From: an uncultured Candidatus Binatia bacterium | GTDB lineage: Bacteria; Desulfobacterota; Binatia; Bin18 | Direction of reading: 5' to 3' | DNA length: 64,000 nucleotides | Assembly (NCBI GenBank): GCA_965200965.1 | Contig: OZ241744.1 | Location: forward strand, 1,600,001-1,664,000 | Part shown: positions 38,956 through 45,637 of the stretch, in pieces | How positions within the stretch are numbered: position 1 is the first letter of the stretch | How the letters are laid out: each line of letters opens with the position of its first letter | Notes under the pieces: model-generated | Told to the model about the DNA's origin: nothing | The model's input: only the letters and a program-made list of their open reading frames with translations | The model's database searches: none | Position numbers and translations under genes: made by a program

Positions 38956-41181
38956 ATGGTGATGGTCAGGCTCAGCGACCAGGAGAAGCAGGAGGTCGTC
39001 CGCTACTTGGAGGCGGACCGCCCTTTGCCGGACAAGTACCGCTTCCTGCTGTTTGAGGACAAGCGCGAAGTCGAGTTAGTCTGGAATGGCAAGACTCACG
39101 AAGTCTGCACTATCGTGCTGCCATTTCAGACCATTGAGCACGTCGATGAGCCACGGGCGGAAAAACCAGAGGACACCAAAGCCCAGATGGCCCTGTTTGA
39201 TGCGCGGGGAAGACAGCGAAAAGGCTGGACCAACAAGCTCATCTGGGGCGATAACAAGCTGATTCTGTCGTCCCTGAAGGACGGGCCGCTCCGCGGGGAG
39301 ATTGAGCAGCAGGGCGGCCTCAAGCTGATCTACATCGATCCGCCCTTCGACGTAGGCGCGGATTTTTCAATGGACATTGAGGTGGGCGGCGATACGCTCA
39401 CCAAAAGGCCCAACATCCTGGAAGAAATAGCTTACCGCGATACCTGGGGCAAAGGCGCAGATTCCTTCATCGCCATGATCTATGAGCGGCTGGTGCTGAT
39501 GCGGGATCTGCTGGCCGAGGACGGCAGCATCTATGTGCATTGTGACTGGCGCCTTGACCACCACATTCGTGAAGTTCTGGATGAAGCGTTCGGCGAGAGC
39601 GGGTATAGAAACACGCTTGGGTGGCGGAGAGACGCAGCAGGAAAAGGAGCAAAGGGGAAATCACGCCAATTACCGCGCAACACCGACACGATTCTGTTCT
39701 ATTCTAAATCCAAGGGATGGATATTCAATCAGCCGTTCAAAGCTCTCAATAAAGATCAAGAGGCTGCCTACCGCTATACCGAAAAGGATACCGGACGACT
39801 CTATAAAGCCGTACAACTGGGGGACTATTCCGAAAAATCTATCGCTAAAATGGAGTCCGAAGGACTCATTCATGTATCTAGCACTGGTCAGAAGTACAAA
39901 AAATACTATCTGGACGAAGCCCAGGCTGCCGTTGATTCCCTTTGGACAGACATTCTTGGATTTGGGACACGCACAGCATCAGGTGAAATTACTGGCTACG
40001 CGACTCAAAAACCCGAAGCCCTGCTTGAACGCATCATCAAAGCCTCGTCCAACGAAGGCGACCTTGTTGCCGACTTCTTCTGCGGCTCGGGTACTATGGC
40101 CGCAGTGGCGGAAAAGCTGGGCCGCAAGTGGATGTGCGCTGACCTCGGCAAATTCGCCATTCACACCACACGCAAACGCATGATCGGCGTACAGCGGCAG
40201 TTGAAAGCCGAGGGCAGGGACTACCGCGCCTTTGAAATCCTCAACCTCGGCAAGTACGAACGGCAGCACTTTGTCGGCCTCAACCCCAACCTGCGCGAGG
40301 AAGAACAGCGGCATCAGGCAGAGGCAAAGGAAACCGCCTTCCTTGACCTGATTCTCAAAGCCTACCGGGCGGAGCGGGTGGAAAACTTTGCCGCCTTCCA
40401 CGGCACAAAGGCCGGCCGGCTTGTCACTGTGGGGCCGGTGAATCTGCCCGTCACCCGGCTGTTTGTGGAAGAGATCATGCTTGAGTGTCGGAAAAAGCGC
40501 ATCACCAAGGTGGACATTCTCGGCTTCGAGTTCGAGATGGGCCTGTTCCCCAATGTCCTCGACGAGGCGCGGGCCAAGGGTATTGACATCGCGCCCAAGT
40601 ACATCCCTGCCGAGGTTTTCGACAAGCGGGCGGTAGAGAAGAACCAGGTCGTCTTTCACGATGTATCGTTCATTGAGGTCAGGCCGCGTGTCAAAACCGG
40701 CAAGAAAACCCAGCCGGCCACGGTGGCAATTGAACTGACAGACTTCTCGGTGTTCTACTCGCAGGACTCGATTGCCAACGCTGAGGCCGCACTCACGGCA
40801 AGCACCAAGGCCGGCAGCAAGATCGTGGTTGAACACGGCCAGATTGTCAGGCTGTCCAAAGACGGGAGCGGCAGTGTCACCCGCGAGCCGCTGACCCGCC
40901 ATTGGACGGACTGGATTGACTACTGGTCTGTAGACTTTGATTTTGAGAGCAAACGTGAGATCATCAGCGTACAGAATCCTGAAACAGGGGCAATTGAAGA
41001 ACAGTGGACCGGAGATTTCATCTTCGAGAACGAGTGGCAGAGCTTCCGCACCAGAAAAGACCGCCGTCTGGAGTTGACAAGCGTCGCCCACGAATGCCGC
41101 CCGGGTCGGCGCAAAATTGCGGTGAAGGTCGTGGACATCTTCGGCAATGACACCATGACCATCGTAGAGGTAACGGTGTGA
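38956..41181 (+). CDS. mod: Type III R-M methyltransferase subunit Mod (beta class)
   Basis: NKLIWGDN, IYIDPPF, YATQKPE, DFFCGSGT; res gene downstream. Confidence 0.92.
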   Translation: MVMVRLSDQEKQEVVRYLEADRPLPDKYRFLLFEDKREVELVWNGKTHEVCTIVLPFQTIEHVDEPRAEKPEDTKAQMALFDARGRQRKGWTNKLIWGDNKLILSSLKDGPLRGEIEQQGGLKLIYIDPPFDVGADFSMDIEVGGDTLTKRPNILEEIAYRDTWGKGADSFIAMIYERLVLMRDLLAEDGSIYVHCDWRLDHHIREVLDEAFGESGYRNTLGWRRDAAGKGAKGKSRQLPRNTDTILFYSKSKGWIFNQPFKALNKDQEAAYRYTEKDTGRLYKAVQLGDYSEKSIAKMESEGLIHVSSTGQKYKKYYLDEAQAAVDSLWTDILGFGTRTASGEITGYATQKPEALLERIIKASSNEGDLVADFFCGSGTMAAVAEKLGRKWMCADLGKFAIHTTRKRMIGVQRQLKAEGRDYRAFEILNLGKYERQHFVGLNPNLREEEQRHQAEAKETAFLDLILKAYRAERVENFAAFHGTKAGRLVTVGPVNLPVTRLFVEEIMLECRKKRITKVDILGFEFEMGLFPNVLDEARAKGIDIAPKYIPAEVFDKRAVEKNQVVFHDVSFIEVRPRVKTGKKTQPATVAIELTDFSVFYSQDSIANAEAALTASTKAGSKIVVEHGQIVRLSKDGSGSVTREPLTRHWTDWIDYWSVDFDFESKREIISVQNPETGAIEEQWTGDFIFENEWQSFRTRKDRRLELTSVAHECRPGRRKIAVKVVDIFGNDTMTIVEVTV

Positions 41182-42500
41182 ATATCCGAAAGCTGACAAT
41201 CGAAGATGTCCGCTGCTTCGCCGGCAGACAAGAGTTCAACATCCGCCCCTTGACCTTTCTGGTCGGCGAGAACAGCACTGGAAAATCTACCGTGCTCGGC
41301 TGTTTTCAAACACTGCACAGCTTTATCGGGTCGAGAACATATCGAACAGATTTGGACTTCAACGCCGATCCGTACCAGATGGGCGCGTTTGCGGACATTG
41401 TAAGGAAATCCAGCCCTCGGAAGAAAAGTTTTCTATTGGGCTTTGAATTCCAATCTGAAAATAGGAGGATCGAGTATTTTGCGAAGCTGACAGAAAAAGG
41501 CTCCGAACCCGTTATCCAGGAACAGAAGATTATTTTCCCTGGCAATGAGATCGTCCTTGTCAAGGAAGAACAAGACGCTGAACAGTTGGACGAAAACGAC
41601 AGTGCCCGTCGCGAGTTCAAAGTTGTCGATTTTTCCGAAGAGGACGGAAACAAAAAATTTCGCGTCAGAGTACTTTTGCCCTTTTTTGGTGTGAGTGCCT
41701 TTACAATGCTGGGGTACTCGCGCTACATATTTCGAGAAGACCCAAAGAAGCTACCGCCCAAAGAAGAAAAGTTTCGTCTTTGTATAGAAGAATTCTCTAA
41801 ATTGGGAGATATTGAGGACGCATGGGGCAGCTATAGTTTTGCGCCAATACGTTCCAAGCCGCAGCGGACCTACGATCCCTTGAAAGAAAATATCAACCCT
41901 GAGGGGAGCGATATCCCAATGGTCCTCAGGGATATATCTCAGTCAGCAGATAAGGAGAGGTGGGAAAAACTCAAGGAGGGGTTGATCGAATTCGGCAAAT
42001 CGTCGGGGTTGTTTGCAAATATTCATGTCAGAAGGTTCGGAAAGTCTATGGGCGACCCCTTTCAACTGCAAATCAAGGTCAGGGGACCAAAAGCCAATAT
42101 GATAGATGTCGGGTATGGCGTAAACCAGGTGTTGCCTATTTTGGTGCGTTTGCTCGCCGATCCTCGAACGACGATATTTCTGATGCAGCAACCGGAGGTC
42201 CACTTGCACCCCAAAGGTCAAGCAGAACTGTCATCCCTGTTAGTCAATCTTCTCAAACGTCAGAGACGCAATTTTGTTATTGAAACCCACAGCGACTATA
42301 TGGTTGACCGCGCCCGCATCGAAATCATGAAAAAGAGAATTGCGCCGGAAGACGTTTCACTCATTTATCTGGAGCCGGCCGGCAATCAGGTCAAGGTTCA
42401 TAACATCACGTTTGACGAACAGGCGAACCTGCTCAAGGTACCAGCCAGCTACCGGGACTTCTTTCTCAAAGAATCGGACAAGCTGCTCGGTCTTGATTGA
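41178..42500 (+). CDS. ABC-type (AAA_15/AAA_21, DUF3696-like) ATPase
   Basis: Walker A GENSTGKST, DVGYGVNQVLPIL, LMQQPEVHLHP, IETHSDY; GTGA overlap with mod. Confidence 0.88.
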   Translation: MNIRKLTIEDVRCFAGRQEFNIRPLTFLVGENSTGKSTVLGCFQTLHSFIGSRTYRTDLDFNADPYQMGAFADIVRKSSPRKKSFLLGFEFQSENRRIEYFAKLTEKGSEPVIQEQKIIFPGNEIVLVKEEQDAEQLDENDSARREFKVVDFSEEDGNKKFRVRVLLPFFGVSAFTMLGYSRYIFREDPKKLPPKEEKFRLCIEEFSKLGDIEDAWGSYSFAPIRSKPQRTYDPLKENINPEGSDIPMVLRDISQSADKERWEKLKEGLIEFGKSSGLFANIHVRRFGKSMGDPFQLQIKVRGPKANMIDVGYGVNQVLPILVRLLADPRTTIFLMQQPEVHLHPKGQAELSSLLVNLLKRQRRNFVIETHSDYMVDRARIEIMKKRIAPEDVSLIYLEPAGNQVKVHNITFDEQANLLKVPASYRDFFLKESDKLLGLD

Positions 42501-42507
42501 GGGCGAA

Positions 42508-42927
42508 ATGATGTGCCTGATTCTGGACACGAATATGTACGGCCTGTTTCTCGTTCCAGACAATAAAGATATGGAACCCGTGAGGAATTGGGTAGACAGC
42601 AAGAACGGGAAAATTGCCTATTCACCAGCCGGTAAAATAAAGGATGAATTAGAGAAGTACCCGAAAATGAGAAAGCGTTTTGAGGTATACAGCCGGGACG
42701 GAAAACTCAAAAACTGCCGCCCGGAATATGTTGAGCAGAAGAAAGCAAAACTGTCACAATTGTGCTCGGATGACCCATATATCCTTGCTCTGGCTCAGGT
42801 CAGCAGGGCTGGCTTGTTGGTCTCTGCCGATAAGAAGCTCCACACCGATTTCAAGCAAATCGTTGGAGGCAAAGTTTACCAAACCAGGAAGCATACACAC
42901 CTGCTCAAGAAAGATCTCTGCCCATAA
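42508..42927 (+). CDS. PIN-domain putative ribonuclease
   Basis: ILDTN, DEL, SDDPYILALA, LVSADKKL give the acidic PIN tetrad pattern. Confidence 0.75.
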   Translation: MMCLILDTNMYGLFLVPDNKDMEPVRNWVDSKNGKIAYSPAGKIKDELEKYPKMRKRFEVYSRDGKLKNCRPEYVEQKKAKLSQLCSDDPYILALAQVSRAGLLVSADKKLHTDFKQIVGGKVYQTRKHTHLLKKDLCP

Positions 42928-42952: not shown

Positions 42953-45637
42953 ATGGCCCTCCACCCCGACTTTCCCGATTCCCCCCACGCGATTCTCGAC
43001 CCGGAGCTTCGCTGGTTTCCTGCGGACGAAACCCTGCGGGAGAGCAGTGCCGAAAAGCTGATGCCGCCGCTGGTGGCCGAGCTTCGGCGTCAGGTGCAGG
43101 CGTTCCGCACCGGCGCTTATGCCGGCGCACGCCCGACAAGCAGGAGCCTGCTCAACTGGTGGTTTGAGGAACCCCATCTGCTGGAGCATGCCGATGGCAG
43201 CACCGCGGAGTTCCGGTACTTTTTTGCCCAGCGGGAAGCGGTCGAGACGATTATCTACCTGTGCGACGTGGTCGGCCTCAGAGACACATACGACCTGATG
43301 CGCTTCGACAGCAGCGGCGCGGTTTCTACCGGCATGTTTGACGAGACCTGGCGACGCTTTGTGGTCAAAATGGCGACCGGCACCGGCAAGACCAAGGTGC
43401 TGAGTCTCGTGCTGGCCTGGAGCTATTTTCACAAGCTCTACGAGCCGGATTCCAAGCTGGCCCGCAATTTTCTGGTCATTGCGCCGAACATCATTGTCCT
43501 GGACCGCATTTACAAGGACTTCCAGGGCTTGCGCATCTTCTTCGCCGACCCGGTCATCCCCGACAACAGCTTTGGCGGTCGCAACTGGCGAGACGATTTT
43601 CAGCTGACCCTGCACCGGCAAGACGAGGTGCGGGTGACGCGGCCCACCGGCAACATCTTTCTGACCAATATCCACCGCGTCTATGCCGGCGACGACGCGC
43701 CAGCCTCCCCGGACGACGAGAACAGCACGGACTATTTTCTAGGCACACGGCCGACCGGCGCAACAACCGACTCGAAGGTGGACCTGGGCATGATCGTCCG
43801 GGACATTGACGAACTGGCCGTCCTGAATGACGAAGCGCACCACATCCACGACAGGACGCTGGCCTGGTTCAAGTCCATTGAAGATATCCACAACCGTCTC
43901 AGGCACAAGGGGACAGCCCTGTCTTTGCAGGTGGATGTGACCGCCACACCCAAACACCACAACGGGGCGCTCTTCGTGCAGACCGTAGCCGATTATGCGC
44001 TGGTTGAAGCCATTGCCCAGAACATCGTCAAGCATCCGGTCCTGCCCGACGCCCCAAGCCGGGCCAAGCTGCTTGAACAGCAGAGCACCAAGTACACCGA
44101 AAAATACGCCGACTACATTGATCTCGGCGTAATCGAGTGGCGGAAGGCGTATGCCGAGCACGAGAAGCTGGGCAAAAAGGCCATTCTCTTCGTGATGACA
44201 GACGACACCAGGAACTGCGATGAGGTCGCCACCTATCTGGAAGGCCGCTACCCCGACCTGAAAAACGCCGTTCTGGTCATTCACACCAAGAAAAACGGCG
44301 AGATTTCCGAGGCCCAGACCGGTAGAGCCAAAGAAGAGATGCAAAAACTGCGTGAACTGTCGAACACCATTGACGCGCCGGACAGCCCCTACAAGGCGAT
44401 TGTCTCGGTGCTTGTGCTCAAGGAGGGCTGGGATGTGCGCAACGTGACGACCATTGTCGGCCTGCGCGCCTATTCGGCCACGAGCAACATCCTGCCCGAA
44501 CAGACGCTCGGCCGCGGCTTGCGAAAAATGTACGGCGGCAATGTACAGGAAAACGTCAGCGTTGTCGGCACAGACGCCTTCATGGATTTTGTGGAATCAA
44601 TCCAGGCCGAGGGCGTGGAGTTGGAACGGATGGCGATGGGCGAAGGCGCACAGTCCAGGCTACCCCTCGTCGTGGAGGTTGACACCGAAAACAACGCCAA
44701 GAACATCGAAGCCCTCGATATCGAGCTGCCCATCCTCACGCCCCGTCTCTATCGGGAATACAGGAACCTGGCCGCTCTTGACCCCAGCGCCATGCGGCCC
44801 CAGCCCGTGCCCTACCGGCAATTCAGCCAGGTCGGGCAACGCCCTATCGTCTTCAAGGATATCGTCACCGGCCAGGACGCCCATACGACACACCTCAACC
44901 CGGCCGGCGCAGCCGACTATCGCAGTGTCATCGGATATTTCACCCACACCCTTATGCAGGAATTGCGTCTGGTCAGCGGCTACGATGTTCTCTACGGCAA
45001 GCTGAAAAACTTTGTGCAGCATGACCTGTTTGGGCAGACGGTCGAACTGGCCTCGTCCACCACCCTGAGAAACCTGTCAGAACCGGCAGCCACAAAGACC
45101 CTGGTCGAAACCTTCAAGCGGGCGATCAATGCCCTGACTGTGCAAGACAAGGGCAAGGCGGAAATCCGCGATACCATCAAGCTCCGCAATACCCGGCCCT
45201 TTGTGGTCAAGGACCAAGGCTGTCTGCTGCCCAAGAAGAGTGTCTTCAACCGGATCGTCGGGGAGAGTCGCTTTGAGCTGACCTTTGCCGCTTTTCTTGA
45301 GCAATGCGACGATGTGGTGTCCTACGCCAAGAATTATCTGGCCGTCCATTTCAAGCTGGATTACGCGGCGGCTACAGACGGCGGCCTCTCTCACTACTAC
45401 CCCGATTTTCTGGTGAAGCTGAGCAACGGACAGGTCATTATCGTCGAGACCAAGGGGCGGGAAGACCTGGACGTGCCGAAAAAAATGGAGCGACTGCGGC
45501 AATGGTGTGAGGATATCAACGCGGTGCAGGCGACTGCTCCCTTTGACTTTGTCTATGTGGATGAAGACGGCTTCACCCGCTACAAACCGCAGTCGTTTGC
45601 GGAGTTGTTGGCAGGTTTTCAGGGATATAAGGGATAA
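42953..45637 (+). CDS. res: Type III R-M restriction subunit Res (SF2 helicase + PD-(D/E)xK nuclease)
   Basis: MATGTGKT, DEAHH, TATP, LKEGWD, EQTLGRGLR, YYPDFLV...IVETKG. Confidence 0.93.
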   Translation: MALHPDFPDSPHAILDPELRWFPADETLRESSAEKLMPPLVAELRRQVQAFRTGAYAGARPTSRSLLNWWFEEPHLLEHADGSTAEFRYFFAQREAVETIIYLCDVVGLRDTYDLMRFDSSGAVSTGMFDETWRRFVVKMATGTGKTKVLSLVLAWSYFHKLYEPDSKLARNFLVIAPNIIVLDRIYKDFQGLRIFFADPVIPDNSFGGRNWRDDFQLTLHRQDEVRVTRPTGNIFLTNIHRVYAGDDAPASPDDENSTDYFLGTRPTGATTDSKVDLGMIVRDIDELAVLNDEAHHIHDRTLAWFKSIEDIHNRLRHKGTALSLQVDVTATPKHHNGALFVQTVADYALVEAIAQNIVKHPVLPDAPSRAKLLEQQSTKYTEKYADYIDLGVIEWRKAYAEHEKLGKKAILFVMTDDTRNCDEVATYLEGRYPDLKNAVLVIHTKKNGEISEAQTGRAKEEMQKLRELSNTIDAPDSPYKAIVSVLVLKEGWDVRNVTTIVGLRAYSATSNILPEQTLGRGLRKMYGGNVQENVSVVGTDAFMDFVESIQAEGVELERMAMGEGAQSRLPLVVEVDTENNAKNIEALDIELPILTPRLYREYRNLAALDPSAMRPQPVPYRQFSQVGQRPIVFKDIVTGQDAHTTHLNPAGAADYRSVIGYFTHTLMQELRLVSGYDVLYGKLKNFVQHDLFGQTVELASSTTLRNLSEPAATKTLVETFKRAINALTVQDKGKAEIRDTIKLRNTRPFVVKDQGCLLPKKSVFNRIVGESRFELTFAAFLEQCDDVVSYAKNYLAVHFKLDYAAATDGGLSHYYPDFLVKLSNGQVIIVETKGREDLDVPKKMERLRQWCEDINAVQATAPFDFVYVDEDGFTRYKPQSFAELLAGFQGYKG

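Follow-up and report, generated by a model that had tools for sequence, protein, structure and literature searches.

This locus raises the question of why two genes, one for an ABC ATPase and one for a small PIN-fold protein, stand between the methyltransferase gene (mod) and the helicase-nuclease gene (res) of a type III-like restriction-modification (R-M) operon, and whether they serve that operon or travel in it. The stretch under study, hereafter the window, comprises 64,000 nucleotides of an uncultured Candidatus Binatia bacterium, and the four genes follow one another on its + strand in the order mod (38956-41181), ATPase (41178-42500), PIN (42508-42927) and res (42953-45637). An earlier note on the letters of this DNA had regarded the inner two genes as a candidate anti-phage module and as a guard of the surrounding R-M system. 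The ATPase and the PIN form a fixed, co-inherited unit under purifying selection, and this pair outlives mod and res at two chromosomal sites; we consider it reasonably probable that the two genes constitute an autonomous module, likely anti-phage like HEC-03, which occupies a cargo slot of the type III-like R-M operon and does not need the R-M system.

A co-inherited ATPase-PIN pair

Across 80 loci, the best-scoring of 163 in which genomes carry the PIN and thus a set chosen by the PIN, the ATPase gene lies directly upstream of the PIN gene in every case, and both genes are intact in 72. Among 24 further loci, mostly more distant ones, 20 show the same order, the four exceptions being two loci at a contig edge, one broken PIN without a detected ATPase and one PIN remnant; the co-occurrence elsewhere on which the earlier note had made its module depend is therefore borne out. 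Ratios of non-synonymous to synonymous substitution rates (dN/dS) range from 0.05 to 0.42 across all 23 computable comparisons, with 0.10-0.36 for the ATPase and 0.17-0.42 for the PIN against the window, and 0.14-0.25 and 0.05-0.32, respectively, in five pairs outside mod-res. The distances of the two proteins are correlated (rho 0.76); common descent accounts for this, and no argument for binding is drawn from it.

The pair is hosted by Binatia, Poribacteria, Latescibacterota, Entotheonella, Gammaproteobacteria, Nitrospirales and others. Its distribution is patchy within the window's family, with the PIN profile finding a match in 20 of 55 genomes, and a phylum-wide sample centred on a gammaproteobacterial host gave matches in 3 of 401; no relative of the PIN was found in viral contigs, 50,697 phages or 72,556 plasmids. 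As a family the PIN spans 1,710 clusters (50% identity) at E<=0.001 and 1,004 at 1e-10.

In the window, the arrangement first noticed, two AT-richer genes coupled to mod through GTGA and closely spaced, is confirmed by coordinates and composition. The GTG start of the ATPase shares 4 nt with the end of mod (41178-41181), 7 nt separate ATPase and PIN, and 25 nt separate the PIN from the ATG of res at 42953; the PIN is 139 aa counted from its ATG, and the version of the open reading frame finder extends to a TTG at 42340. GC content is 0.556 in mod, 0.478 in the ATPase, 0.462 in the PIN and 0.586 in res, with a genome value of 0.615, and when the genome is divided into 2068 tiles of 1750 nt, 0.3% of them reach a GC as low as that of the cassette (0.475).

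At one locus (L079:4866-8423) a tandem of two diverged ATPase-PIN pairs immediately precedes res. At another (G000:C1:656735-658719, L191) what is left of a second family PIN, its C-terminal part, stands in frame before a HEC-01 pair, a juxtaposition which suggests that one cassette replaced another.

Relation of the pair to the R-M operon

Loss of the R-M genes beside a retained pair can be read directly at two sites. In L003 the window's flanks are present at ~85% identity, res is gone, and the last 30 codons of mod, which contain the ribosome-binding site of the ATPase, are kept; in L006, which occupies the same site as L007 and L010, mod and res have been deleted and 35 nt of the mod start are left. 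With the Res query used here, no Res was found in the genomes of L003, L006, L009 and L043. The pair is also retained in one related strain with a 274-nt deletion in res and in three related strains in which a segment of mod (39551-40141, + strand) has been exchanged for ~495 other letters; this segment, delimited by joints in X2, X4 and X7 and marked by a local GC dip, is from its position likely the target-recognition domain, and its exchange likely represents specificity switching. No joint skipping the cassette occurs among 15 joints listed of 22.

Sequence derived from mod on one side and from res on the other encloses only 12 of the 80 copies, and among these mod or res is broken in 9 and the pair intact in 11. 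Using a weight matrix of the mod 3' end, 24 of the 80 upstream regions scored above the 99th percentile of 749 control genes, and together with two copies followed by res this brings the number that touch this R-M to 26. Around the other copies, about 54, stand mainly genes of metabolism alongside some for defence, as judged from a scan of 130 of the 176 neighbour representatives. A quick ATPase tree of 65 rows requires 8 changes of the embedded state, of which no fewer than 5 are imposed by branches with good support; long-branch warnings attach to the three outgroups, and for these reasons the family is not placed relative to HEC-03 or NsnB.

What the operon offers its passengers is seen from a sample unselected for the pair. 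Of 79 metagenome loci collected by Res alone (L139 was left out of 80), 16 lack the mod end or the res start on the contig, and among the 63 scorable operons mod and res are directly adjacent in 34, other cargo separates them in 29, and none carries the ATPase-PIN pair. The mod-res gap is thus a cargo hotspot, with IetAS, PD-T4-4/PDC-M47, HEC-01, PDC-M19, PDC-S13, PDC-S22, KilA-N, SoFic-like, NYN, MNT-HEPN and STAS+PIN among its contents. Within the window's class, Res was found in 9 of 200 other genomes, and the 8 scorable operons comprise 4 with the pair, 2 with other cargo and 2 with no insert. Two gaps hold several cargoes at once: Abi-alpha, a duplicated mod tail, the ATPase-PIN pair and MNT-HEPN in L017:2400-11961, and an IrrE-like peptidase with DUF4411, together with the pair, in L046:1307-11113.

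These observations bear on the proposal that the pair is a dedicated guard, in which Mod and Res would keep ATPase-PIN latent and inhibition of R-M would unleash the RNase. PrrC, the model for such a guard, is a single ATPase-HEPN polypeptide, and it resembles the window pair in joining an ABC ATPase and an RNase within an R-M locus. According to PMC12707154, PrrC, as in EcoprrI, occurs almost only in type I R-M and is held latent by it, a precedent that speaks for a guard along with the translational coupling to mod, the embedded and R-M-adjoining copies and the half of the operons in the window's class that hold the pair. The window pair differs from PrrC in being two genes, found mostly outside R-M loci and surviving R-M loss. 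A toxin kept latent by R-M should not survive at L003 and L006, where the pair is intact and conserved without mod and res, so PrrC-like dependence is not supported; retention through the mod exchange and the res deletion, and the absence of the pair from all 63 unselected operons, tell in the same direction. The guard role assigned earlier is probably wrong, and as a mechanism for this family we hold it very improbable; the pair is likely a passenger, and the same-site deletions, in which R-M was lost and the passenger kept, favour here the view of embedding as a genomic sink or hitch-hiking over the guard view. The pair may sense phage anti-restriction proteins directly, in a PARIS-like role.

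The two proteins and their known relatives

Both identifications made at first reading, an AAA_15/21-type ATPase and a 139-aa PIN protein, hold. The ATPase (440 aa, 41178..42500, +) matches Pfam AAA_15 and AAA_21 above cut-off, and structure comparison gives it an SMC/OLD-type ABC fold resembling the heads of Rad50, SMC and retron PtuA; among PADLOC models it ranks NsnB (151 bits) before PDC-M55A (134) and HEC-03B (89). Walker A (GENSTGKS, residues 30-37) and the H-loop (ETHS, 369-372) are invariant in the family, as are many surface residues, and the position of the ABC signature holds GYG instead (312-314). The tail may be DUF3696-like, the DUF3696 model being matched weakly by 4 of 62 family ATPases and not by the window protein. 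In Walker B (LMQQPE, 335-340) both of the normally acidic positions are glutamine (Q337 and Q338, codons 42186..42191, +), and QQ(PE) recurs in 76 of 78 ATPases of the loci and window, in 119 of 120 top homologues and in 20 of 20 further ones; the same genome's own HEC-03 ATPase has EQ and its own NsnB has EN. A glutamate-to-glutamine change at this Walker B position blocks hydrolysis in ABC ATPases, and from this motif the ATPases of the QQ clade likely bind ATP and hydrolyse it slowly or not at all. The Walker B substitution E393A in AriA of PARIS is described as ATPase-defective (PMC11464382). A description of this QQ family was not found in the literature searched, nor was an account of PDC-M55; the ABC ATPase classification of Krishnan et al. 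(2020) may list the family.

The window PIN (42508..42927, +) matched no Pfam PIN, PADLOC or NCBIfam model. Its AlphaFold model (pLDDT 93) matched VapC-type PIN domains, best at Z 9.8 and rmsd 2.6 over 113 aligned residues, and nearly all of the top 25 structural matches are PIN-family entries; this placement comes from VIA-align alone, the sequence having matched no solved structure and Foldseek having returned none at E<=0.001. The D-E-D-D tetrad of PIN/VapC RNases is present and conserved in 269 homologues (D7 in 248, E47 in 260, D89 in 269, D108 in 267), together with D114 (266), making the protein a likely RNase. A small DNA-binding VapB gene, which would lie upstream in a VapBC pair, is not what precedes the PIN; in all 80 loci that gene is the ATPase. 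Every family PIN that extends over Cys3 and Cys138 has these cysteines (243 and 252 of 269; the others show gaps there), and they could form a disulfide or metal site. Weak matches to PADLOC PDC-M11A were obtained for 12 of 55 PINs (best E 7.5e-5) and 9 of 82 (best E 1.9e-5).

The design of the pair is already known, because HEC-03, an ABC ATPase with a VapC-like PIN, has been tested and is reported to protect E. coli with both genes needed (bioRxiv 10.1101/2024.01.29.577857), and OLD-ABC plus PIN pairs are listed inside BREX loci (PMC12839542). The HEC survey of Payne, Hughes, Fineran and Jackson is described as covering Hma, BREX, DISARM and type I R-M (bioRxiv 10.1101/2024.01.29.577857). 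The statement that the pair matches no named system thus gives way as regards architecture and stands as regards the specific family, which by its sequence is uncatalogued and absent from PADLOC models; the earlier note was right on the module and partly wrong on novelty.

How far the family is HEC-03 or Menshen in disguise can be judged against true members in the same genome. With HEC-03 (PADLOC PDLC04148/PDLC04147) the pair shares the order of an ABC ATPase gene and then a VapC-like PIN gene, similar sizes and embedding in DNA-modification systems; its ATPase is 23% identical to the genome's own HEC-03 ATPase over 463 columns, and 10 further family ATPases score 74-97 bits on the HEC-03 ATPase model. 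However, the true HEC-03 scores 521 and 132 bits where the window pair scores 89 and finds no match, Walker B differs (EQ against QQ), and the genome's HEC-03 is embedded in Hma whereas the window pair is embedded in type III-like R-M. Family PINs matched none of HEC-03A, NsnC and PDC-M55B (0 of 55 and 0 of 82), nor did 6 distant PINs match HEC-03A at E 1e-8 with a positive control at 132 bits; the HEC-03 and window PIN profiles have four acidic residues in register but reach a profile-profile probability of 6%, and reciprocal HMM comparison gave 10.9 bits at best. Menshen is described as having an adjacent DUF262 NsnA and an NsnC that is an inactive PIN fused to a C-terminal nuclease (PMC12065111). 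The window pair resembles it in that NsnB is the best-scoring ATPase model, in the GxG replacing the ABC signature, in a possibly DUF3696-like tail and in a PIN-fold partner downstream; it differs in having mod upstream instead of NsnA, a stand-alone PIN with an intact acidic tetrad, and QQ where NsnB has EN. The genome's own NsnB scores 349 bits on the model that gives the window ATPase 151, and its complete Menshen NsnABC (G000:C1:248372-251605, L197) scores 379 for NsnA and 377 for NsnC. On this evidence we judge it improbable that the family is a divergent member of HEC-03, or a Menshen that has lost NsnA and the effector domain of NsnC.

The likeness to PARIS AriAB and Septu PtuAB lies in the union of an ABC ATPase and a small nuclease (PMC11464382; PMC12065111), and the difference lies in the effector, which is TOPRIM or HNH there and PIN here; moreover AriA, which hydrolyses ATP, has a catalytic glutamate in Walker B where the QQ family has glutamine. 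PDC-M55, a PADLOC candidate, is alike in its ATPase model, matched at 134 bits over most of its length, and may be unlike in its partner: the window PIN is less than half as long as PDC-M55B (315 positions), a model without a match in the window genome or in any control genome.

Homologues of NsnA occur in 2 of the 80 loci and in none of the 24 further ones; in both (L045:3450-5020 and L054:3535-4987) they belong to a separate Menshen with internal deletions, which lies upstream and is parted from the pair by a single sulfatase gene. A complete Hma at G000:C1:2331682-2345968 (L198) carries an orphan PD-T4-4-like ATPase, HEC-01 and the true HEC-03 as cargo. A fourth ATPase of the group, with 558 aa and Walker B EQ, precedes a 314-aa gene at G000:C1:3322934-3325557 (L196); this gene matched no PADLOC model at E 1e-8, and the two could be a further unnamed pair.

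Function and proposed mechanism

Of the claim of an anti-phage module, co-inheritance and purifying selection secure the module; the anti-phage role, argued by analogy with HEC-03 and with the defence cargo of the same slot, is likely. Several points weigh against the reading of an autonomous defence module in an R-M cargo slot. No remnant of R-M DNA accompanies about 54 of the 80 copies, and many are set among housekeeping genes and not in defence islands, a setting that would also fit a selfish, toxin-antitoxin-like element. Copies inside R-M show mild clustering on the tree (8 changes, where shuffling gave 10.3 on average and a value as low in 12 of 500 shuffles), and together with the 26 copies touching R-M this makes the historical link to R-M stronger than chance. 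Some of the breaks in mod and res may stem from faulty assembly, the genomes being metagenome-assembled, mod and res form the larger target, and the loci were selected by PIN. Defence by PARIS is reported to require ATPase activity (PMC11464382), and a non-hydrolysing QQ ATPase therefore cannot work exactly like AriA.

In the toxin-antitoxin-like alternative, an addiction or stress module, the ATPase would be a pseudo-enzyme antitoxin of a VapC-like toxin, loss of the pair would be lethal, and no anti-phage role would exist. The VapC fold, the QQ Walker B, retention after R-M deletion, the mostly non-defence neighbours and the patchy distribution all agree with it. Yet an antitoxin would not need an ATPase of 440 aa in which Walker A, the H-loop and many surface residues are invariant, the plasmids searched, where addiction modules are common, gave no match, and all characterised relatives of this ATPase group, as described in the literature examined, act in defence; we regard this alternative as unlikely, though it deserves more weight than kinship within HEC-03 or Menshen.

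For the autonomous defence module that we prefer, the following mode of action may be proposed. By analogy with PARIS, Septu and Menshen NsnB-NsnC, the ATPase would dimerise on ATP and use its C-terminal tail to keep the PIN inactive, and the QQ motif would make it a conformational sensor with ATP bound and little turnover. A phage cue, perhaps a protein that counters restriction or mimics DNA, or else dwindling nucleotide pools, would release or activate the PIN, which would then cleave tRNA or rRNA, the target suggested by VapC biology, and arrest the infected cell. In PARIS, AriA is described as releasing AriB, which cuts tRNA (PMC11464382); a PARIS-like trigger here would provide a functional back-up to R-M without physical dependence on it. 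The mod-res gap would supply the module with a promoter, a ribosome-binding site and a vehicle, and as the R-M decays the module stays, often with only the mod tail in front. As a bolder and tentative picture, which we find doubtful as a whole, the pair may represent an unnamed, widespread family in which a naturally hydrolysis-dead QQ pseudo-ATPase is the sensor and controls a PIN RNase solely by binding a nucleotide or trigger, and which spreads among sponge symbionts of many phyla through type III R-M operons and then outlives them.

The family is missed by current PADLOC models, for with no PADLOC match to the PIN no system would be called, and it adds to the ABC-ATPase/nuclease defences. 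It stands out by its QQ Walker B, by a PIN family that is uncatalogued, and by direct evidence that a passenger outlived the operon which carried it. The HEC paper poses as an open question whether such sensors are driven by the binding of ATP or by its hydrolysis (bioRxiv 10.1101/2024.01.29.577857), and a clade with a fixed QQ Walker B and a kept Walker A is a natural test case for it.

As for the remaining features of the locus, the host operon lies outside the module and encodes a type III-like N6/N4 methyltransferase (mod, 741 aa, 38956..41181, +; Pfam N6_N4_Mtase, PADLOC MTase_III 363 bits) and a helicase-nuclease (res, 894 aa, 42953..45637, +; Pfam ResIII, REase_III 68 bits, BPTD_3080 family 251 bits with a cut-off of 800). 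The two lie in one operon as in type III R-M, and the operon is named type III-like because the scores fall under NCBIfam cut-offs. Scans for promoters and terminators gave results at chance level, and no flanking repeats pointing to a transposon were found. A Shine-Dalgarno-like AGAGGT in the last codons of mod and the GTGA stop/start overlap (41166..41181, +) are often kept by relatives without mod. The window stretch is present in sponge-metagenome runs.

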